DNA of 64,000 nt from an uncultured beta proteobacterium (GTDB lineage Bacteria; Pseudomonadota; Gammaproteobacteria; Burkholderiales; Burkholderiaceae_C). How positions within the stretch are numbered: the stretch's first letter is position 1; every line of letters begins with the position of its first letter. Location of the stretch: positions 256,668 to 320,667 of the forward strand of contig CAWJBD010000003.1 in NCBI GenBank assembly GCA_963841045.1. Direction: 5' to 3'. Positions 8,787 through 60,526 of the stretch are shown one piece after another. Under the pieces are notes generated by a model. The model had not been told where the DNA came from and did no database searches. It worked only from the letters and a program-made list of their open reading frames with translations. Both the position numbers and the translations under genes were made by a program.

Positions 8787-9038
8787 TTAGATAACGTTAT
8801 TAATTTTCGCTTTTGTTACCGCTGTCGCATTGTATTGCTTTTGTCGCTTGTGTCGATTCCCTGGGTGGATTTTCGTTGCTGCAATCAACAACCAAACTTT
8901 TTGCTTCATCGCATCGGTACTTGTGCTCCAAGCAGCTATTTCATCCAGGGTACGAAAGCAACCTTTGCACAGAAGGCTGATGGCATCAATTTGACAAACG
9001 GACGTGCAAGGCGATGGTATCGACATTTTATATGACAA
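8787..9038 (-). CDS. DUF1289 family cysteine-motif protein
   Basis: SPCTSVCQIDAISLLCKGCFRTLDEIAAW is the DUF1289 signature. The ORF maximum starts with TTG at 9038; an ATG at 9026 is the more likely start. Confidence 0.7.
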   Translation of the reverse strand: MSYKMSIPSPCTSVCQIDAISLLCKGCFRTLDEIAAWSTSTDAMKQKVWLLIAATKIHPGNRHKRQKQYNATAVTKAKINNVI

Positions 9039-9041
9039 ATC

Positions 9042-9093
9042 AGGCTATAGCCGGCGTATTGATTGCCTATGTTGCTATTAAATACATAGCAAA
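9042..9093 (+). repeat. Family-1 dispersed palindromic repeat, copy A (intergenic)
   Basis: AGGCTATAGCCGGCGTATTGATTGCCTATGTTGCTATTAAATACATAGCAAA aligns with five other copies in the window. Confidence 0.85.
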
Positions 9094-9121
9094 TGAACAC
9101 TAATGGCTGTTATCATGCTGC

Positions 9122-10585: not shown

Positions 10586-12724
10586 TCAAGCTACGCTTAA
10601 CTTTAGCAACTCTGCCCCTTCAGCCACTTGGTCGCCTGGTAAGTACAGTAGCTCCTCTACCACGCCATCTGACGGCGAGCAAATGGTGTGTTCCATTTTC
10701 ATCGCGTCCATGACCGCCAAGGCTTGGCCTTTGCTGACCTTGTCACCCTTTTGAATAGAGAAAGAAACCACTTTGCCCGGCATGGGTGCAGTCAAACGAC
10801 CGCCCTCTTCATGCACTTCGCCAGCATGTGCCAGCTGGTCGTTTACTATCATTTGTATAGCACCTTTGGCAGTAAATATGCTGGCTACATCCATATTTTG
10901 ATGTATTTTTGCTTGAATACGTTGCCCCGCAAATTGCACATCAATCCCAGTTGCGGTTGGTAAATAATCCAATGCACCACTGATGTCGCCAACTGTTAAA
11001 TGCAATGCACCTCCGTGTAAATATCGCAATTGAGCAGATACGGGTTCACCATAAATTTCAAATTCGAAATTTCGAACACGTTCACCATGCGATTGCCAGC
11101 CATCAACTTTGCCCCAAGGATCAGCCCAATTCGACGCGTTGAGTTTTTCCGTTTTGGCAGCGCCATTCACTTCAGACTGCAAGGTGTTGGCAACTGCCGC
11201 TGCCACCGCCAAAACTTTATCGATGGGCTTCTGGTTGAACAAGGCTTTTTCTTCTCTCGGAATTAAACCAGTATCCAAATTAGCCGTTGCAAACGATTCA
11301 CTGTTCACCACATGGCGCAAAAACTGCACATTGGACTGCAAACCGACAATGTGCGTTTGTGACAAAGCCTTGTCCATGCGCGCCAAGGCTTGTTCGCGCG
11401 TGGCACCATGCACAATCAACTTGGCAATCATGGGGTCGTAGTAAGGCGAAATGGCATCGCCTGCGCGAACACCTGAGTCCACCCGTACAGACACTGCCGA
11501 AATCGAATCGCTGGCGTTTTGAAATGCGACATGCTCTGGCAATGCATATACATTGATATCACCAATGGCAGGCATGAATTGCTTGTCTGGGTTTTCGGCA
11601 CAAATACGCGCTTCAATCGCATGTCCGTTGATTTGCAAATCTTGTTGTTGCAAGGGCAGTTTTTCACCATTGGCTACGCGTAATTGCCACTCCACCAAAT
11701 CCAAACCCGTAATCGCTTCAGTCACTGGATGCTCAACCTGCAAGCGCGTGTTCATCTCCATGAAATAAAAGGCCCACACTTGCCATTGGTGTGCTGCGCT
11801 GCCCGCGGGGTCTAATTTCCCTTGAGGCGGCTCGGCGGGAAATTCTGCATCAACCGTTTCCACAATGAATTCAACCGTGCCAGCGCCCACATAATTCACG
11901 GCACGCGCAGCGGCAATGGCTGTGGCACCCATTTGTTCACGCATGGCTGGCGACAAGCCAGGTGCTGGCGCTTCTTCCAAGACTTTTTGATGGCGGCGTT
12001 GCACCGAACAATCGCGTTCAAACAAATGCACATAGTTGCCGTGCGTGTCGCCAAACACTTGTATCTCAATATGACGCGGACGTTGCACGTATTTTTCGAT
12101 CAACACATTGTCGTCACCAAAACTGTTGATGGCTTCGCGTTTGCATGAAGACAATGCTGCTGCAAAGTCGGCTGCCTTTTCCACAATGCGCATGCCTTTG
12201 CCACCACCGCCCGCGCTGGCTTTGATGAGCACGGGGTAGCCAATCGCATCGGCTTGCATTTGTAAATACGCCGCATCTTGGTTGGCACCGTGGTAACCAG
12301 GCACCAATGGCACGCCGGCTTTTTCCATCAACTGTTTGGACTCTGCTTTCAAACCCATGGCCTGTATGGCGCTGGCTGGTGGGCCAATGAATACCAAACC
12401 GGCTTGTGAGCAACTGTCTGCAAAGGCATCGTTTTCACTCAAAAAGCCGTAGCCAGGGTGAATGGCCTGTGCGCCCGTTTGCTTGGCCGCATCAATGATG
12501 GTTTGCCAACGCAGGTAACTGTCTTTGGGCGCATTGCCTGCATTTGGGTTGCTGCCATCGCCCACATCGCCAATGGCAATGGCTTCGTCGCAAGCCATCA
12601 CATGCTTGGAATGCGCATCGACAGGTGAATAAATAGCGACAGTTTTGATTCCTAAGCGTGCGCAAGTGGCTGCGACTCGGCAAGCAATTTCACCGCGATT
12701 GGCTATCAGTATTTTTTTGAACAT
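10586..12724 (-). CDS. liuD: 3-methylcrotonyl-CoA carboxylase alpha (biotin carboxylase + BCCP) subunit
   Basis: MFKKILIANRGEIACRV, EMNTRLQVEHPVTE, and the C-terminal biotinylation motif AMKME. Carries an in-frame Family-2 repeat insertion just before EMNTRLQVEH. Confidence 0.95.
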   Translation of the reverse strand: MFKKILIANRGEIACRVAATCARLGIKTVAIYSPVDAHSKHVMACDEAIAIGDVGDGSNPNAGNAPKDSYLRWQTIIDAAKQTGAQAIHPGYGFLSENDAFADSCSQAGLVFIGPPASAIQAMGLKAESKQLMEKAGVPLVPGYHGANQDAAYLQMQADAIGYPVLIKASAGGGGKGMRIVEKAADFAAALSSCKREAINSFGDDNVLIEKYVQRPRHIEIQVFGDTHGNYVHLFERDCSVQRRHQKVLEEAPAPGLSPAMREQMGATAIAAARAVNYVGAGTVEFIVETVDAEFPAEPPQGKLDPAGSAAHQWQVWAFYFMEMNTRLQVEHPVTEAITGLDLVEWQLRVANGEKLPLQQQDLQINGHAIEARICAENPDKQFMPAIGDINVYALPEHVAFQNASDSISAVSVRVDSGVRAGDAISPYYDPMIAKLIVHGATREQALARMDKALSQTHIVGLQSNVQFLRHVVNSESFATANLDTGLIPREEKALFNQKPIDKVLAVAAAVANTLQSEVNGAAKTEKLNASNWADPWGKVDGWQSHGERVRNFEFEIYGEPVSAQLRYLHGGALHLTVGDISGALDYLPTATGIDVQFAGQRIQAKIHQNMDVASIFTAKGAIQMIVNDQLAHAGEVHEEGGRLTAPMPGKVVSFSIQKGDKVSKGQALAVMDAMKMEHTICSPSDGVVEELLYLPGDQVAEGAELLKLSVA
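11773..11844 (-). repeat. Family-2 palindromic repeat, in-frame copy inside liuD
   Basis: The coding strand GAATTTCCCGCCGAGCCGCCTCAAGGGAAATTAGACCCCGCGGGCAGCGCAGCACACCAATGGCAAGTGTGGG aligns over about 75 nt with 50266-50342. It contains AATTTCCC-N15-GGGAAATT and CCCGCGGG palindromes. Confidence 0.8.
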
Positions 12725-16870: not shown

Positions 16871-16927
16871 CCTAGTTTGCTATATATTTAATAGCAAACT
16901 AGGCAATTAATACGCCGGCTACAGGCC
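16871..16927 (-). repeat. Family-1 dispersed palindromic repeat, copy B (intergenic, best-preserved hairpin)
   Basis: The reverse complement reads GGCCTGTAGCCGGCGTATTAATTGCCTAGTTTGCTATTAAATATATAGCAAACTAGG, with a 13-bp perfect stem CCTAGTTTGCTAT/ATAGCAAACTAGG. Confidence 0.9.
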
Positions 16928-16946
16928 AATTTCTTATATATTTTTG

Positions 16947-31268: not shown

Positions 31269-31315
31269 GTAAGCAGCCTGCATCGCCTCTATCTCATGAA
31301 TATTTATAAGAAATT

Positions 31316-31367
31316 AGGCTGTATCCGGCGTATTTATTGCCTAGTTTGCTATTAAATATATAGCAAA
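31316..31367 (+). repeat. Family-1 dispersed palindromic repeat, copy C (intergenic)
   Basis: AGGCTGTATCCGGCGTATTTATTGCCTAGTTTGCTATTAAATATATAGCAAA. Confidence 0.85.
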
Positions 31368-31388
31368 TACGTCTAATACTATTTAATC

Positions 31389-45160: not shown

Positions 45161-45200
45161 AAATATGAATCCAGCGAACCAGATTCTATAAATTTTGTGC

Positions 45201-45593
45201 TTAGTAGCTTGAACGGCCACCGCCGCCGTAACCGCCGCCGCCATCGCGACCGCCGCCACCGTAACCGCCGCCGCCTGAACGACCGCCGCCACCGCCGCCG
45301 TAACCACCACCGCCACCGAAGCCACCGCTACGTGGAGGACGTGGCTCCATCGGACGTGCTTCATTGACGACGCAGCTGCGACCGCCTAAATCTTTACCAT
45401 TCATACCAGCAATGGCTGCTTGTGCTTCGGCATCGCTGCCCATTTCCACAAAACCAAAACCTTTTGAACGACCTGTGTCGCGTTCCATCATCACTTTAGC
45501 GCTGGTAACAGCACCAAATTGACTGAAAGATTGCTCTAAATCGCCATCGCGAACCGAGTACGGCAAATTGCCAACGTACAGTTTGTTGCCCAT
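45201..45593 (-). CDS. RNA-binding protein (RRM domain, Gly/Arg/Tyr-rich tail)
   Basis: 130 aa with RNP-2 (LYVGNL), RNP-1 (KGFGFVEM) and a C-terminal GGGGYGGGG repeat. Confidence 0.9.
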   Translation of the reverse strand: MGNKLYVGNLPYSVRDGDLEQSFSQFGAVTSAKVMMERDTGRSKGFGFVEMGSDAEAQAAIAGMNGKDLGGRSCVVNEARPMEPRPPRSGGFGGGGGYGGGGGGRSGGGGYGGGGRDGGGGYGGGGRSSY

Positions 45594-46817: not shown

Positions 46818-46877
46818 ACTGTATTGTGCAGTAGTTTATGTGATAGTTTTATTTTCATTTATTTTTAGGAGATACCC

Positions 46878-47175
46878 ATGAACCAACGTGCACTTATCGC
46901 ATCTGCCGCTACCGCTTTGCTCTCTACCATGTTGCTGTCCACTTCTGCCATGGCCGCCAGCCATGCTGCTGCACCTAAGGCTGAAAAAGAAAAATGTTTT
47001 GGCGTTGCAAAAGCAGGTCAAAACGATTGCGCCAATTTGGCTGGTACACATTCATGTGCTAGGTCAAGCCAAGGTTGACATGGACAAAGGCGAATGGAAA
47101 TACGTTGCCAAAGGCACTTGCGCCACCATGAAAGGCATGAGCATGGAAGAAGCCAAAAAAGGCATGAAAAGCTAA
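46878..47175 (+). pseudogene. bufA: DUF2282-family signal-peptide RiPP precursor (bufferin BufA-like), interrupted by a +1 frameshift
   Basis: Frame 1 reads [61 protein letters not shown], then RSSQG-stop. Frame 2 continues [37 protein letters not shown]. There is an extra base at about 47061. The span of 298 nt is 3n+1. AGGAG RBS at 46867-46871. Confidence 0.8.
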
Positions 47176-47218
47176 GCTAAAAACATTGGCACTTTAAATA
47201 TTCAACAAGTCCGCCCAC

Positions 47219-48103
47219 ATGACATCGCATAGCAATATCGGTATCGGTTGGCGGCACCCTCATTACCAAGAGTTGGTAGATCGGCTGCCAACTCTTGATT
47301 TTTTAGAAGTCCATTCAGAAAACTTTTTTGGCAAAGGTGGCGCGGCATTGGCCGTGCTGATGAAAGGCCGTTCGCACTACCCCATTAGCTTGCATGGTGT
47401 TGGTTTGGCCTTAGGCTCAGCTTCTGGCATTGATGAATGGCATTTGAACAAACTGACCCATTTGGTGGCACAAGTGGACCCCATTCGTGTCAGCGACCAC
47501 GCTTGCTTTGCGCGTGGCAGTGTTGAATGCCAAGGTCAAATGGTGAATGTGCATGGCGCAGATTTGTTGCCTGTGCCCTTCAACCAAGAAGCCTTGGCTG
47601 TGATGTGTGCGAACGTCAGCCAAGTGCAAGACCGTTTGAAACGCCGCATCGCGGTAGAAAATCTTTCCGCCTACATCAGCTTTGCAGACAGCGATATGCC
47701 TGAGACCGAATTTTTGAACCAACTCGCACAGCGCACAGGGTGCGAGTTGTTGGTTGATGTGAACAACATTTACGTCAACGCGCTGAACGACCAAATACAA
47801 CAGCGTTGCACCAACCCATTGCAACAATGTAAAGATTGGTTGAATCAAATTAGGCCAGATGCGGTTTCAGAAATTCATTTGGCTGGTCACATCGACTGCG
47901 GCGACATTGTGGTGGACGACCACGGCAGCCGCATCAAAGCACCGGTTTGGGATTTGTACCAACACGCGATTCAACTGTTTGGTGCGGTGCCCACTTTGAT
48001 TGAATGGGACACCGATATTCCTGCATTGGATGTGCTACTGGATGAAGCACAGCACGCCAGTCAAATTTGCAAAGCCTGCCTAACTACAGAGGTCACAGCA
48101 TGA
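47219..48103 (+). CDS. bufB: DUF692 / MNIO-family enzyme (MbnB/BufB-like)
   Basis: 294 aa. [13 protein letters not shown]...[12 protein letters not shown]...[12 protein letters not shown]...RVSDHACF...EWDTDIP. Confidence 0.85.
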
Positions 48104-48936
48104 GCAACTTGGCCGCGCAACAAAGCGCGCTATTACGCACCTTGTTCAGTTCACCTGTTCAACGGAGTCAAAATGCTACTAATTTCATAGCACTTCAGGC
48201 AATCAATACGCCGCCTAGAGGCCAAAAAGACCATATAAAATTCCAAGAAAGAGGCTTGCAGGTGTATCACGCCAATGCGCAAGTGGCAGCCATTCGCAAC
48301 TTGCAAGCGGCCTATCCAGTGACAGAACAATTGGTTGGTGGCGAAGCGTTTGCTTTGTTGTCGCGCGATTTGTGGCATCAATTTCCACCTAGCAAGGGCG
48401 ATGCCGCTCAATGGGGCGCAGATTTGGCGCAGCTCATCCACAGCATTGCAGAATTAAAGACAGAACCTTACCTGCCCGACGTTGCACGCATTGAATGGGC
48501 CTTGCATATGGCAGCAACAGCAACCGATGCAGAACTGGACGTTAACAGTTTGGCGCTGTTGACCACGCATGCCCCCGATGCCATTACCTTGCAACTGGCA
48601 ACTGGCACACACATTGTGAACAGCAGCTATCCAGCCGCCAGCATCACCACAGCGCATTTGTATGAGAACCCCAACTTTGAAGAATTACAAGCCAAACTCA
48701 GAAAGAGCAGCCCTGAATCTGCCCTCATTTGGCGACAAGGTTTTCGCCCATCTGTGGCCTTATGTACTGCTGCCGATGCCGCATTTATTCAAAATTTATT
48801 AGACGGTGCATCTTTGGCGGCAGCCTTGGATGACACCGAAACGGTTGACTCAACGCCAGCATTTGACTTCAACACGTGGCTCACACAGTCAGCGCAATCT
48901 GGTTTGCTGGTGGGTGCCAAACTGCTTTCAACTTAA
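48100..48936 (+). CDS. bufC: DUF2063-family partner protein (BufC-like), carrying an in-frame Family-1 repeat
   Basis: 278 aa from [26 protein letters not shown]...[13 protein letters not shown] matches the DUF2063 N-terminal pattern. Its ATG overlaps the bufB stop (ATGA). Confidence 0.8.
48171..48223 (-). repeat. Family-1 dispersed palindromic repeat, copy F (in-frame inside bufC)
   Basis: The reverse complement reads GGCCTCTAGGCGGCGTATTGATTGCCTGAAGTGCTATGAAATTAGTAGCATTT. In the gene it is translated as [18 protein letters not shown]. Confidence 0.8.
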
Positions 48937-48972
48937 ATCAATCTCTTAACCCAACAACACATAGGAAGAAAA

Positions 48973-49419
48973 ATGGAGAACACCCCTATCAAGCGAGGAT
49001 TGGCTTTATGGACCAGCGTGACTCAAACATTGGATTTGGCTCAACCTTTGGCTGCAATGCTGGCCCGCCTGTACGTGGCACAAGTCTTTTTCATGTCGGG
49101 CCTCACAAAAATTCGCGATTGGGAAATCACAGTGTCACTGTTTACCGATGAATACAAAGTACCCTACTTATCGCCAGAACTCGCCGCCATGCTGGGCACT
49201 GCGGGTGAATTGGTTTTGCCTGTGCTCTTGGTATTGGGATTGATGGGGCGCTTTGCGGCGCTGGGTTTGTTTGTGGTGAATGCGATTGCCGTTATCAGCC
49301 TGTCTGAAATCGCACCTGCCGCTTTGCAACAGCACATCACTTGGGGTGTGTTGCTCGCATTGTTGGCCATTTATGGTTGCGGAAAATGGGCGCTTGATCA
49401 TTGGTTAATCAAGCGATAA
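48973..49419 (+). CDS. DoxX-family membrane protein (in the BufD position of bufferin operons)
   Basis: 148 aa with four TM segments. LARLYVAQVFFMSGLTKI and AELVLPVLLVLGL. Confidence 0.8.
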   Translation: MENTPIKRGLALWTSVTQTLDLAQPLAAMLARLYVAQVFFMSGLTKIRDWEITVSLFTDEYKVPYLSPELAAMLGTAGELVLPVLLVLGLMGRFAALGLFVVNAIAVISLSEIAPAALQQHITWGVLLALLAIYGCGKWALDHWLIKR

Positions 49420-49481
49420 AACTCACAACACAAATTTTTAGCACAAATAATTAGCGCAACTGCCATGCGCATAATAGCGGA

Positions 49482-51174
49482 ATGGCGAATTCCGACAACT
49501 TTAATCCTCAACCACCAGCGCAAATGGCCAGCACGATTGTGCTGTGCACGCTCAACGCCAAGTACATCCATGCCTCTTTAGGATTGCGTTATTTGTTCGC
49601 CAACATGGGCGAATTGCAGTCGCAAACGCGCATTTGTGAATTCATGATCAACCGCAAAAGCCCAGAAGAATGGGCGAATGAGTTGATTGCCATGAACCCA
49701 CGCATCATTGGCTTTGGTGTTTACATTTGGAACACGGTGCAAACCTGTGAAGTGGTCAAACTGCTGAAACAACTGCGACCAGACATCACCATCGTTTTAG
49801 GTGGCCCAGAGGTCAGCCATGAAGTACTGGAACAAGAAATCGCGCAACTGAGCGACTACGTCATCACCGGCTGGGGCGACATCAGCTTCCCCAAACTGTG
49901 CCGCGCGGTGTTGCATGGTCCTCAACCCTTGATGAAAGTGATAGCGGGCGAGCAACCGCCGCTGGACGACATCCAACTGCCCTACGCCTACTACACCGAC
50001 GAAGATTTGGCGCACCGCTTGCTGTATGTGGAAGCCTCGCGCGGTTGCCCGTTCAAGTGCGAGTTTTGCATCAGCTCGCTGGACAAAACCGCATGGGCAT
50101 TTGATTTGGATTTATTTCTGGGTGAACTGCAAACTCTGTACAACCGTGGCGCGCGCAATTTCAAATTTGTGGACCGCACTTTCAATTTAAAAATCGACGC
50201 ATCGGTGCGCATCATGCAGTTCTTTTTAGACAAAATTGACGCCGAGAAGCATGGGAGAGGATTTGAATTCTCCGACGAGCCGCCTCTAGGAGAATTAGCC
50301 CCCTCGGGGGGCAGCGCAGTACGCGAAGCGACAAGCGTGGGGGAACTTTTCCTGCATTTTGAAGTGATTCCAGACCATTTGCCAGACCGACTCGAAAGAA
50401 ATGATTGCCAAATTCCCACCCGGCTCTTTGCAATTTGAAGTGGGCATTCAAACCTTTAATGTCGATGTGCAAAAGCGCATTTCGCGCAAGCAAGACAATG
50501 ACAAAACCGTTGCCAATTTGAAATGGTTGCTGAACGAATCCAACGCGCATTTGCACACCGATTTGATTTTTGGCCTGCCAGGCGAAAGCTTGCAAAGTTT
50601 CGCCGATGGTTTTGACAAACTGTATGCGCTTGAGCCGCATGAAATTCAACTCGGCATTTTGAAACGCCTGCGCGGCACGCCCATTGCCAAGCACACCGAA
50701 ACACACGGCATGGTGTACGACCCGCTGCCGCCCTACCAAGTGCGGCAAACCGCGGCAGTGACTGCGGCTGACATGACCCGCTTTGCCCACATGGCACGCT
50801 ATTGGGATTTGGTCGCCAACTCTGGCCGCTTCACCGCCACCATGCCTTTGCTGATGCTGGGTGATTCACCATTCGGCGCGTTCATGGCTTTCAGCGATTG
50901 GCTGTGGAATGACTCCATCCACATCAAAGGCAAAACCAGCGGCATCACGCCCGAGCATTTGGTCAATGCCCTGCATGCATATTTGATTGGGCCACGCGGT
51001 ATGGATGTGGATGTGGTGACGCAAGCCCTGCTCACCGACTACGTCGCCAGCGGTGCGCGGGCCAGGCCTGATGTGCTGCGTCATTTAATGCCAAAGTTCC
51101 CAGCACCCATCCCCAAAGCCAAGAAGCAACACAGCCAGCGCCAAGCGCAGCATTTGTCGCTGACTCCGTCTTAA
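49482..51174 (+). pseudogene. B12-binding-domain radical SAM protein (DUF4080-type) with a +1 frameshift and an in-frame Family-2 repeat
   Basis: Part 1 ends ...LFLHFEVIPDHLPDRLE then RNDCQ... and a stop. Part 2 begins (K)EMIAKFPPGSLQFEVGIQTFNVDVQKRISR. Contains the rSAM cluster motif EASRGCPFKCEFC. The junction is at about 50391-50400. The span of 1693 nt is 3n+1. Confidence 0.8.
50266..50342 (+). repeat. Family-2 palindromic repeat, in-frame copy inside the radical SAM gene
   Basis: AATTCTCC-GACGAGCCGCCTCTA-GGAGAATT, then a GCCCCCTCGGGGGGC hairpin, then AGCGCAGTACGCGAAGCGACAAGCGTGGG. Translated as EFSDEPPLGELAPSGGSAVREATSVG, compared with EFPAEPPQGKLDPAGSAAHQWQVW in liuD. Confidence 0.8.
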
Positions 51175-54278: not shown

Positions 54279-55103
54279 TTAAATGCCCATGCTTTGCAAA
54301 GTCACCACGCCTTTGGGCGTGCGCAGGGTGACGGTGAGGTTTGGCTCACCCTCTGAAACAGTGACGCCACTCAAACCAATAGCCGTGTAAGCAGCTTGCA
54401 GTTTGTCGCTACTTAGGGATGTGACAGCCACGCTTTGCAGCGACACGCCAGAGCGCGGCAAGGTGTTGCGCGGGTGCAAGCGCAGGGGTTCAGCGTCGGC
54501 ATTTTTGCCCCACTGAATCAGACTGGGCAAAGTGCCGTTGAACAGGCGCTGGCCATCATCGCGCACGGTGATTTTCCATTCCAAACGGCCTTTGCGCGTG
54601 TGGCGGCTGGCTTCGACTGCGGTGCCGCGGTCAATGCCTTGCAACTTTAATGCGCTCTTTGCGGCTTGGATGTCTGCCGTCTGTGCCACAAAGTGCACCA
54701 AGCGCGGCTCTACTGCCACTGCCTTTTGCAGCGCTGCATCGTCCATATCAAACCAACGCGCAGAATTTATACGTTTTTGGCCTGTAGCCGGCGTATTAAT
54801 TGCCTGAGGTGCTATTGAATTAGTAGCATCAGGTTTAATGGCAATGATTTCAAAATACGCCAATGGATACTGTGGTGTGGCGATTTTGAACAAGCAATTG
54901 TGGGTGCCAAACTGCTTGTGCTCGCCACCTTCATTGGGTGTGATGCCCAAAGTGGCTTCGCACCACGCAACACCCTGCTCTAGCGTTTGCGCTACGACAA
55001 CGATGTGGTCTATTTGAGTCTTAACTTCTGTGCTGGTCGCTTCGGTTGGTGCTGAAGTAGCAAACGCACGCGCTTCGCGGTTGGACCGCACGATCAGCGT
55101 CAT
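54279..55103 (-). CDS. VOC-family (glyoxalase-like domain) protein carrying an in-frame Family-1 repeat
   Basis: 274 aa. IDHIVVVAQTLEQGVAWCEATLGITPNEGGEH..FGTHN.LF...YFEIIAI. Confidence 0.7.
   Translation of the reverse strand: MTLIVRSNREARAFATSAPTEATSTEVKTQIDHIVVVAQTLEQGVAWCEATLGITPNEGGEHKQFGTHNCLFKIATPQYPLAYFEIIAIKPDATNSIAPQAINTPATGQKRINSARWFDMDDAALQKAVAVEPRLVHFVAQTADIQAAKSALKLQGIDRGTAVEASRHTRKGRLEWKITVRDDGQRLFNGTLPSLIQWGKNADAEPLRLHPRNTLPRSGVSLQSVAVTSLSSDKLQAAYTAIGLSGVTVSEGEPNLTVTLRTPKGVVTLQSMGI
54780..54835 (+). repeat. Family-1 dispersed palindromic repeat, copy E (in-frame inside the VOC gene, antisense to the element)
   Basis: GGCCTGTAGCCGGCGTATTAATTGCCTGAGGTGCTATTGAATTAGTAGCATCAGG. 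Translated on the minus strand as DATNSIAPQAINTPATGQ. Confidence 0.85.
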
Positions 55104-59020: not shown

Positions 59021-60526
59021 ATGCTCACCAAAAACAGCACCCTTTCACTGTCTGAACAATTGCGCGACCGCTTTGCACAGCGCATTCAAAGCCGTTTGCT
59101 CTCAGCTGGCGCGCGCTTGCCTTCGGTGCGGCAATGTGCGCAGCAGCAAGGTGTGAGCCCGTCAACGGTGGTGGCTGCTTATGACCAATTGCTGGCGCTG
59201 GGTTTGGTAGAGTCGCGCCGCAACAGGGGCTTCTATGTACGAGAATTTACCAATTTTTATACAAAAAATCAGCCTGTATCCGGCGTATATATTGCCTATG
59301 ATGCTATCAATAATGTAGCAAATAATGCAAATCATCTTGCGACAAATGCTCCAAGCGTATCGGCTACACAAACCCCTGCACCCATGCGGGCACCTACTCC
59401 CGCCCCCATCAATGCCGCCATGCTGATTCGTGGCATGTTCCGCCAAGCAGGACCCAAGCCGCAACCTGGCATGGGGGTGTTTCCACCAGAGTGGTTGGAC
59501 AACCCGTTTTTAAGCGCCGCTGTGCGCAAAGTCACCACACCAGCCGCGCTGAAACAGTTTTCATTGGAATATGGCGACCCAATGGGTGATGCGAATTTAA
59601 GACAATCGCTGTCCAACAAGCTCGCACAAATGAACATCAGCGCAGCACCCAGCCAAATCATCAGCACAGTTGGCGCTACGCATGCGCTGGATGTGGTGAG
59701 CCGCACCTTGCTCAGAGCGGGTGACGCGGTGATGGTGGAAGAGCCCGGCTGGGCGGTGGAATTTGCGCGCTTGCAAGCGCTGGGCATGCAGATATTGCCC
59801 GTGCCACGCCGTGCCGATGGACCCGATTTGGACGTGATGGCGAAGTACTGCGACATTCACAAACCCAAACTGATGGTGAGCGTGAGCGTGCTGCACAACC
59901 CCACGGGCTACATGCTGTCGCCCCACAGCGCGCACCGCATGTTGCAGCTGGCGAATGAACACGACTTTCACATCATGGAGGACGACAGCTACAGCCACAT
60001 TGCGCCCGACCATGCCACGCGCCTGTGCGCTTTGGATGGTTTGCAACGCACGATCTATGTGAGTGGCTTTGCCAAAATACTCGCCCCCAATTGGCGCGTG
60101 GGCTATATGGCTGCACCCGAAGATTTGATAGAACGATTGCTGGACACCAAATTGCTTGCCACCTTGACCACGCCAGCTCTCTTAGAAAAAGCCATTAGCC
60201 TGTGCATAGACCAAGGCCAACTGCGCCGCCACGCCACCAGCATACGTGCCAAACTGGCAGCGGCACGTGGCAGAACGGTTAAGTTGGCACTTGCTCACGG
60301 TTGTACATTCGCATCCGAACCAGCAGGTTTATTCGGCTGGGTAGACACTGGCGTGGATACCGACCAATTGGCGCAGCGCATGCTTGACCACGGATACTTG
60401 CTCGCCCCCGGTGCCCTCTTCCACGCCAGCCGCCAACCCAGCACACTGATGCGCATCAACTTTGCGACCACGCAGAATGCGGAATTTTGGAAAGTGTTTG
60501 CGCGGGAAGTGGAAGCGATGAAGTAA
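59021..60526 (+). CDS. MocR-subfamily GntR regulator (wHTH + PLP aminotransferase-like domain) with an in-frame Family-1 repeat in the linker
   Basis: 501 aa from MLTKNSTLSLSEQLRDRF. LPSVRQCAQQQGVSPSTVVAAYDQL (HTH) and SGFAKILAPNWRVGY (PLP lysine context). Confidence 0.85.
   Translation: MLTKNSTLSLSEQLRDRFAQRIQSRLLSAGARLPSVRQCAQQQGVSPSTVVAAYDQLLALGLVESRRNRGFYVREFTNFYTKNQPVSGVYIAYDAINNVANNANHLATNAPSVSATQTPAPMRAPTPAPINAAMLIRGMFRQAGPKPQPGMGVFPPEWLDNPFLSAAVRKVTTPAALKQFSLEYGDPMGDANLRQSLSNKLAQMNISAAPSQIISTVGATHALDVVSRTLLRAGDAVMVEEPGWAVEFARLQALGMQILPVPRRADGPDLDVMAKYCDIHKPKLMVSVSVLHNPTGYMLSPHSAHRMLQLANEHDFHIMEDDSYSHIAPDHATRLCALDGLQRTIYVSGFAKILAPNWRVGYMAAPEDLIERLLDTKLLATLTTPALLEKAISLCIDQGQLRRHATSIRAKLAAARGRTVKLALAHGCTFASEPAGLFGWVDTGVDTDQLAQRMLDHGYLLAPGALFHASRQPSTLMRINFATTQNAEFWKVFAREVEAMK
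59271..59322 (+). repeat. Family-1 dispersed palindromic repeat, copy D (in-frame, sense orientation, MocR linker)
   Basis: AGCCTGTATCCGGCGTATATATTGCCTATGATGCTATCAATAATGTAGCAAA. Translated as QPVSGVYIAYDAINNVAN. Confidence 0.8.

Follow-up and report, generated by a model that had tools for sequence, protein, structure and literature searches.

In a 64,000-nucleotide (nt) stretch of DNA from an uncultured beta proteobacterium of Burkholderiaceae_C (contig CAWJBD010000003.1, positions 256,668 to 320,667; hereafter called the window), a GC-rich segment that lies in frame within a gene for a radical SAM protein with a DUF4080 domain was identified from its sequence as a member of the Beta-proteobacterial Repeat Element (BRE) family, which was named in 2011 but has barely been characterised. 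Another copy, which is decayed, is present in frame in the liuD-like gene for the alpha subunit of methylcrotonyl-CoA carboxylase (MCCase) in the same window. The radical SAM copy is absent from the nearest relatives of its host, forms hairpins the arms of which covary in other genomes, and belongs to a family that uses almost exclusively two reading frames when placed inside genes. We consider it rather probable, although with considerable reservation, that such a copy is a structured passenger, selfish or nearly neutral, which would be tolerated as a flexible surface loop of the enzyme and would be gained and lost quickly.

Two copies of a known repeat family in enzyme genes

BRE was reported by Hot et al. 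(2011, BMC Genomics 12:207; PMC3110155) as a repeat of ~90 bp derived from the bprJ small-RNA locus of Bordetella pertussis, with 8–22 copies in Bordetella and 29 copies in Polaromonas sp. JS666; the repeats form tandem arrays of variable number, some of them lie wholly inside coding sequences, and their function was given as unknown. When a profile was made from seven Bordetella BREs published in the supplement of that paper (List S1), it matched the window at 50272-50347 (E=1.1e-6) over almost its full length and nowhere else. Reciprocally, a profile of 139 Comamonadaceae copies, all from other genomes, matched the published BRE units with E=1e-8 to 2e-3. The latter profile found the radical SAM copy with E=2e-21 and the liuD copy, which was reached by this profile only, with E=1.4e-11; no third copy was detected in the 64-kb window, where nothing else scored better than E=6.9. 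The block order is also common to the published BREs and the copies described here, namely a stem, GCCGGGCCGCCC(C)AAG, a stem, GCCCCCTCGGGGGGCAGC, a hairpin, and CAGCGTGGGGG, and so are the GC-richness and the size (75–91 nt in general, 78 nt for the unit here). Based upon the reciprocal profile matches together with the block order and the size, the segment is therefore considered to be a new copy of the known family. Indeed, the host range is shared as well: Comamonadaceae including Polaromonas and Rhodoferax, plus Bordetella, with tandem arrays in both. The two types nonetheless differ in that the third hairpin in Comamonadaceae (G-Y-A-C-R-C GAA G-Y-G-R-C) is shorter than that in Bordetella (AAGCCCGC...GCGGGCG), and the T-runs flanking the Bordetella units are missing from the Comamonadaceae type. 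Hot et al. (2011) gave no secondary structure, reading-frame analysis, list of host genes, or function; Table S4 of PMC3110155 contains the repeats within genes. Within the literature that could be searched, no later study of either BRE or bprJ came to light, and Rfam returned no match at E<=10 for the region and none at the gathering score for six BRE-rich loci.

The radical SAM copy (Table 1) has the full order AATTCTCC-N15-GGAGAATT-A-GCCCCC-TCG-GGGGGC-AGCGCA-GTACGCGAAGCGAC-AAGCGTGGGGG and is translated into (E)FSDEPPLGELAPSGGSAVREATSVG, by which a loop of 26 residues is added to the protein. A first-pass annotation of this DNA had already described much of the segment, and several of its statements agree with the sequence: AATTCTCC (50266-50273) and GGAGAATT (50289-50296) are separated by a spacer of 15 nt, the codon frame of the open reading frame (ORF) 49482-50438 reads EFSDEPPLGELAPSGGSAVREATSVG at 50265-50342 and then ELFLHFEVIPDHLP, and the segment is conspicuously GC-rich, with 65% compared to 46–50% in the 300-nt flanks and 47.6% in the window. 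The proposed GCCCCC/GGGGGC hairpin is also present, but its loop is not TC but TCG (3 nt); furthermore, a third and covarying hairpin at 50319-50332 and the inner helix of hairpin 1 had been missed. The parallel drawn with the liuD insertion is well founded in both nucleotides and reading frame: the two copies are 78–82% identical over ~80 nt in a pairwise alignment, are both sense-oriented single units, and share one reading frame with respect to the element (..GGC AGC GCA..). The GC content of the liuD copy is 62.5%, compared to 47–52% in its flanks.

Table 1. Positions in the window of the two BRE copies, the structural parts of the radical SAM copy, and its host gene
Feature	Position	Strand	Description
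BRE copy 1	50266-50343	+	78 nt, near-consensus unit, in frame in radical SAM/DUF4080 gene
Hairpin 1	50266-50296	+	Outer stem AATTCTCC/GGAGAATT, 50266-50273 with 50289-50296
Hairpin 1, inner helix	50277-50279 with 50284-50286	+	3 bp, GAG/CTC, closing a CCGC loop
Hairpin 2	50298-50312	+	GCCCCC (50298-50303) with GGGGGC (50307-50312), loop TCG
Hairpin 3	50319-50332	+	G-U-[A]-C-G-C GAA G-C-G-A-C; covariation
Possible helix enclosing hairpin 3	50314-50317 with 50335-50338	+	GCGC/GCGU, invariant, unproven
3' G-run	50339-50343	+	GGGGG closing the unit; >=90% conserved, outside the search pattern
BRE copy 2	11769-11849	-	In frame in methylcrotonyl-CoA carboxylase alpha (liuD-like) gene 10586-12724 (-), 712 amino acids
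Host gene of copy 1	49482-51174	+	B12-binding radical SAM protein with DUF4080 (Pfam); two ORFs, 49482-50438 and 50401-51174
Extra base	50391-50395	+	CTCGAAAG in the window; CT-CAAAG in L001, CCT-GAAAG in L002

The first-pass annotation had also placed the copy in frame inside the radical SAM gene, which is correct, but the gene as assembled is interrupted by an extra base near 50393. Pfam assigns both ORFs to one gene, in which the Radical_SAM domain is broken between the profile positions 68 and 104. Its true start is probably 49524, as in P0001, the full-length product (549 amino acids) of the related locus L002. The frameshift site is located ~50 nt downstream of BRE, and without one base near 50393 the reading ...DHLPDRLKEMIAKFPPG... 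is restored. Since the extra base is missing from both of the close relatives, L001 (95.5% nucleotide identity) and L002 (96.7%), the frameshift is private to this window, with a recent mutation and an assembly error as the two possible causes. The window sequence at this site resembles a blend of the codons in the two relatives (Table 1), and an assembly or consensus error is hence as likely as a real pseudogene.

Since a suspicious single-base indel is present in the radical SAM gene itself, and hence at least one in the window, it could be supposed that the segment is an assembly artefact or that GC-rich, low-complexity stretches resemble each other by chance. The probability of this is negligible, however; the two copies are recovered with an independent profile at the E-values described above, L002, which comes from an independent metagenome assembly, has the identical insert, and homologous copies are found at these sites in numerous further assemblies.

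Presence, absence, and decay among relatives

Among the best 120 homologues of the radical SAM protein (121 sequences in total), the two closest ones after P0001 do not have the segment; these are P0002 (91% amino acid identity, 95.5% nucleotide identity) and P0003 (81% amino acid identity). At the DNA level as well, the segment is present in L002 and absent from L001. The proposal in the first-pass annotation that the segment is an inserted dispersed repeat rather than one native to the protein is thus supported by P0002, P0003, and L001. The segment was found at the identical site in 38 of the 121 sequences, five of which have it doubled, and some of the inserts possess a variant 5' half (AAAKGRPEQGTAP...). 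In a clean example of filled and empty proteins, MSED is directly followed by L in the one and MSED-QFSAGPPQGKLAPPGGSAVREATSVGAG-L is read in the other. At least 21 gains or losses are needed on a neighbour-joining tree constructed with the insert columns excluded, compared to a mean of 32.6 under random assignment. Elsewhere, the DUF4080 site accommodates 2–2.4 tandem units, with a period of 81 nt in L004 and of 90 nt in L005. The insert in liuD is distributed in a similarly patchy manner: it is absent from 15 relatives at 92–94% amino acid identity and present in relatives at 96%, at 87%, and, in several cases, at ~75%.

Structural information on both hosts is available. In P0001, residues 246-272, which correspond to the insert, are predicted by AlphaFold with a predicted local distance difference test score (pLDDT) of <50 and are flanked by a helix (224-244) and a strand (276-281). 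In the solved structures of MCCase, a turn of three residues is found where the liuD insert places 28 residues.

Once resident, a copy can be degraded. Compared with L128, in which the gene is 94.7% identical, the liuD copy in the window has three internal deletions: the G-run of hairpin 2 lacks 3 nt, the loop of hairpin 3 lacks 1 nt, and AAGCGTGG lacks 2 nt. These deletions together keep the gene in frame, with a local frameshift that changes HAVASVG to HQWQVW. Deletions that fall inside the hairpins but preserve the frame of the gene are expected of a passenger, the hairpins of which are not needed in place.

Covarying hairpins and restricted reading frames

An exact-pattern DNA scan of one genome per bacterial species detected BRE in at least 120 loci. 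Among the matches listed, all of the titles (80/80) were from Burkholderiales, many of them from genera of Comamonadaceae; the titles named Polaromonas, Rhodoferax, Variovorax, Acidovorax, Ramlibacter, Curvibacter, Hydrogenophaga, and others. The collected loci were then found by nhmmer to contain 166 copies. One copy (L007, 6894-6938) is on a contig classed as viral (IMG/VR UViG_3300025683_000763), which may be either a Comamonadaceae phage with the repeat or a misclassified fragment of a chromosome.

An alignment of 141 copies was examined with RNAalifold and by explicit counting of base pairs. The alignment columns 27-37, 51-54, and 57-73 were set by the search pattern, which accounts in part for their invariance; the columns 21-26 and 74-95 and the copies that were retrieved via the host protein give support free of this bias. 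In these 141 copies, 90.2% of the cells were paired, whereas 35–46% were paired in slid controls, and the covariation score was 0.209 versus 0.097 in shuffles, none of which (0/500) scored as high. The outer stem of hairpin 1 is very variable, with 28–64 double changes at each of its pairs and 105 distinct outer-arm 10-mers among 139 copies. Even when no register was assumed, the longest helix between the own arms of a copy averaged 4.76 bp versus 3.75 bp between swapped arms, a difference of 13 standard deviations. The inner helix of hairpin 1 has the consensus GGG-CCGC-CCC, and at its pair 26-33, 130 copies have G-C and seven have A-U, both of the window copies (GAG...CTC) being among the seven. 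Hairpin 2 is 98% paired with no double changes, and most of its columns are fixed by the pattern; this hairpin is nearly invariant and thus gives no evidence of covariation. In hairpin 3 (consensus G-Y-[A]-C-R-C GAA G-Y-G-R-C), all four combinations of the two covarying pairs were observed, the pair 71-82 being C-G in 66 and U-A in 66 copies and the pair 74-80 being A-U in 87 and G-C in 48. The compensatory changes shift the encoded residues, giving VREAT, AHEVA, or VHEVT, and we thus consider that the constraint is on the nucleic acid and not on the peptide. As a single strand, the GC-rich unit of ~80–90 nt folds into three hairpins, which are linked by strongly conserved sequence.

The C-run of hairpin 2 (50299-50303; columns 50-54) can pair with either 50307-50311 (columns 58-62) or the 3' G-run at 50339-50343 (columns 91-95). 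These folds are mutually exclusive, and the alternative pairing with the 3' G-run appears in the minimum free energy fold. In the Bordetella units, a T-run comes after the 3' G-run, an arrangement that resembles an intrinsic terminator.

We also classified 146 fairly complete copies against ORFs supported by their GC content at third codon positions; 54 copies were outside ORFs, 8 overlapped the ends of ORFs, and 84 were within coding-like open stretches. Among those 84, 44 were deep inside genes (>=150 nt from both ends), and deep intragenic copies hence make up at least 30% of the sampled ones. The intragenic share is a lower bound, because some arrays that were first scored as intergenic (e.g., L028 and L045) are in frame within genes. 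When the orientation and the frame were recorded for the 44 deep copies, 30 were in one sense frame (xAGPPQGxxAPSGGSAAHEVASVGA), 12 in one antisense frame (APTLVASRTALPPEGA), and 2 in another; namely, two frames account for 42 of the 44. Four of the six frames of the consensus are open, and the two avoided frames are rich in arginine, cysteine, and leucine. Outside genes, the copies are mostly between co-directional genes, where antisense orientation prevails over sense (24 versus 9), as is also the case at the bprJ locus of B. pertussis.

The 20 hosts that we examined by Pfam are ordinary housekeeping enzymes of unrelated families. They include formate-dehydrogenase-like oxidoreductases, AceE, PEPC, Lhr, PurK, PurL, TrpE, and GcvP, and also an acyl-CoA dehydrogenase, RecJ, GlpK, an oxoprolinase, and GlnE. 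Sites in PEPC, TrpE, GcvP, PurL, MCCase, and DUF4080 recur across species with different stem variants. In-frame arrays of 2–3 units were found in GcvP (L066, 518-768, three units), an AMP-dependent ligase (L084, 5315-5479), a nitrilase-like protein (L028, 3502-3696), and, in the antisense frame, a FemAB-like protein (L045, 6481-6756). The periods of the intragenic arrays are all multiples of three (81, 84, 87, and 90), while those of the published intergenic arrays in Bordetella are 83–86. When a profile of the doubled BRE peptide was searched, the top 120 matches were ORFs of 29–93 amino acids with no Pfam domain, which are translated arrays.

As an alternative, the segment might be a loop rich in glycine, serine, alanine, and proline that is selected at the protein level in the enzyme, the nucleotide similarity simply following the amino acids. 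Indeed, APSGGSA...SVGA is kept at fixed positions in the 38 DUF4080 sequences and in many homologues of MCCase alpha. We nevertheless regard this as very improbable, given that this DNA is found outside genes as well as in an antisense frame, that the residues change wherever the paired bases covary, that the closest relatives have no insert, and that the model confidence for the loop is very low. The liuD copy also tolerates its local frameshift, and the hosts are unrelated with no common function. The first-pass annotation had reasoned that a native protein segment would be conserved at the protein level in distant homologues without nucleotide similarity; what we found is the opposite, with the core of the element being 86–91% identical among the orthologous DUF4080 copies compared to 44–55% at the flanking third codon positions.

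A passenger or a functional motif

The appearance and disappearance of BRE among close relatives, the use of only two benign frames within genes, and the decay once a copy is resident are the observations from which we infer a passenger. In this lineage, the radical SAM gene with DUF4080 and the MCCase alpha gene each received a BRE copy; both copies occupy a loop that joins secondary-structure elements, are sense-oriented, and are read in the single sense frame giving a peptide of small residues (xFxAGPPQGxLAPSGGSAxxExxSVGA). The ribosome would then read through BRE, and the enzyme would gain a disordered surface loop with no function for the host. The hairpins and the core would be retained for the propagation of a selfish element itself, with single-stranded DNA or RNA as the probable intermediate on which a trans-acting factor would act, while the resident copies would decay with the reading frame alone being protected.

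The main rival is a functional structured motif maintained in place: namely, BRE would be a functional RNA or a folded single strand of DNA that is kept by selection at each locus, and the radical SAM copy would be dual-coded. Possible roles would be a signal for processing or stability, a small-RNA gene like that of BprJ1, and a protein-binding site. We consider this explanation possible but doubtful. A very conserved core combined with stems that vary yet stay complementary is typical of functional RNAs, and the high identity of the orthologous intragenic copies relative to the third codon positions is in line with this idea, as are the two alternative pairings of the C-run. Also, no difference exists between the window and L002 across 50144-50363, a run of 219 nt, while the gene differs by 3.3% overall. 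A recent transfer was considered as an explanation of this run but was dropped, the run being only marginally unusual after allowing for the element itself. Furthermore, comparison of the published RNA and BRE sequences revealed that BprJ1 of B. pertussis, a discrete RNA of ~80 nt, corresponds to a single BRE unit read from the sense strand. On the other hand, the copies within genes are in both orientations and those between co-directional genes are mostly antisense; therefore, no single role at the transcript level fits all of the copies. The nearest relatives of both hosts are without the insert, and parts of hairpins 2 and 3 have been lost from the liuD copy in the window. G-U and A-C mismatches numbered 24 and 15, respectively (p=0.2), revealing no clear strand preference. 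The folding energies of the two window copies are also unremarkable, with z-scores of -1.5 and +1.1 in sense and of -2.2 and -0.9 in antisense, and no Rfam family was matched.

Several points do weigh against a passenger. The accumulation of BprJ1 as an RNA of ~80 nt hints at a role as RNA. The identity of 86–91% among orthologous copies despite saturated synonymous sites is higher than a purely neutral resident would retain and implies either rapid turnover, repeated re-insertion or gene conversion, or selection in place. Part of the core conservation in the 141-copy alignment is due to the search pattern. The occupation of the same exact codon in many lineages is not accounted for by a passenger. 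Only one pair of filled and empty DNA is available for each host, and neither is clean: the empty allele in L001 differs from the window by 16 + 83 nt, the inserted block being 83 nt and the 16 extra nt being upstream, so that the comparison is not that of a simple one-step insertion, and in liuD the native loop is replaced. These filled/empty comparisons are too unclean to show or exclude a target-site duplication.

The case for mobility, furthermore, is drawn from the distribution, because no recurring transposase, terminal inverted repeats, or target motif was found. No transposase-like family recurred among 609 clustered ORFs from the 8-kb neighbourhoods of the sampled loci, the largest clusters being genes for ABC transporters and acyl-CoA ligases. 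Terminal inverted repeats were not evident by reading, and the unit ends, AATTCTCC... and ...GTGGGGG, are not complementary. A target resembling the 3' end of BRE itself (GCGTGGGGGC) was rejected, as the upstream matches were no better than those in control windows; this test of 126 copies revealed no target motif, and the 23 copies with at least 9/10 upstream matches to GCGTGGGGGC have true tandem predecessors. It might even be proposed that BRE represents a new class of structured element, which would be actively maintained by in-place selection or template correction even in the coding sequence of essential enzymes, where the same 80 nt would have to form three hairpins and at the same time encode a harmless loop, and would be re-inserted at the same codons in different lineages by dedicated machinery; we regard this as rather unlikely, and a passenger remains the reading that we favour.

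Comparison with other repeats may help to place BRE. REPs are extragenic single hairpins of 20–40 nt with a conserved GTAG head, and REP/REPIN elements, which are short GC-rich hairpins, are mobilised by RAYT transposases (IS200/IS605-like Y1), by which they are recognised as folded single strands. BRE is likewise abundant, dispersed, and often arrayed, and recognition of a folded strand would explain why its stems covary while unpaired bases are conserved. BRE differs, however, in having three hairpins over ~80 nt, no GTAG at the foot of a hairpin, and at least 30% of the sampled copies deep in genes. We found no RAYT-like gene near the sampled copies, but this is weak evidence since only the 8-kb neighbourhoods were covered and a genome would carry just one or two such genes. 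Classical MITEs are characterised by terminal inverted repeats and target-site duplications, while the ends of the BRE unit are not complementary. Rickettsia palindromic elements (RPEs), as summarised in PMC10969869, are hairpin-forming repeats that are inserted in frame in many unrelated housekeeping genes, are translated, and also occur between genes. By analogy with RPEs as described there, BRE is alike in its in-frame use of unrelated genes and in the conserved peptide that it encodes; the hosts of RPEs are obligate intracellular Rickettsia and the unit is ~100–150 nt, in contrast to the free-living Burkholderiales, the ~80-nt unit, and the frequent tandem arrays of BRE. MIRUs and other bacterial repeats of the VNTR type (ERIC, NEMIS/Correia, and BOX), which Hot et al. 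listed as comparators (PMC3110155), are small dispersed repeats as well, some of which are tandem with strain-variable numbers and some of which are transcribed or translated, but they have no sequence relationship to BRE.

Some other features of the window were noticed. A second, AT-richer repeat family of ~65–70 nt (..GGCTRTAGCCGGCGTATTNATTGCCT..TGCTATnnnnnnnATAGCA..) with a GCTAT/ATAGC hairpin has six copies in the 64 kb (9031-9094, 16876-16944 (-), 31305-31368, 48173-48228 (-), 54768-54831, and 59260-59323). The copy at 48173-48228 is within the N-terminal coding region of an HvfC/DUF2063-like gene; since both L001 and L002 have it conserved, it may represent a further in-frame repeat. Imperfect tandem repeats of 15/18 nt (GCCACCGCCGCC..) at 45198-45331 are Gly-rich on the minus strand and correspond, by synteny with L002, to a gene for a small RRM_1 RNA-binding protein with a glycine-rich tail. 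Directly upstream of the radical SAM gene, a bufferin-type peptide cluster extends over ~46860-49420 (syntenic with L002 7344-9884); it is composed of a BufA1-like precursor, MbnB/DUF692, HvfC/DUF2063, and DoxX, and a sigma-70 ECF-type gene is located further upstream. In L003, L004, and L006, which carry BRE but are more distantly related, the DUF4080 gene has other neighbours.

For the annotation of genomes, these results mean that BRE loops of 26–28 residues, or multiples thereof, inflate and split the alignments of conserved enzymes and could be mistaken for lineage-signature indels, while BRE arrays yield spurious small "hypothetical proteins". BRE in free-living Comamonadaceae behaves like RPEs. 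Such behaviour has mostly been treated as a curiosity of reduced intracellular genomes. Because its core is very conserved, its stems covary freely, its insertion sites are used repeatedly, and its presence or absence changes rapidly between close relatives, BRE is a tractable system for examining how small structured repeats spread and how they are absorbed by proteins.

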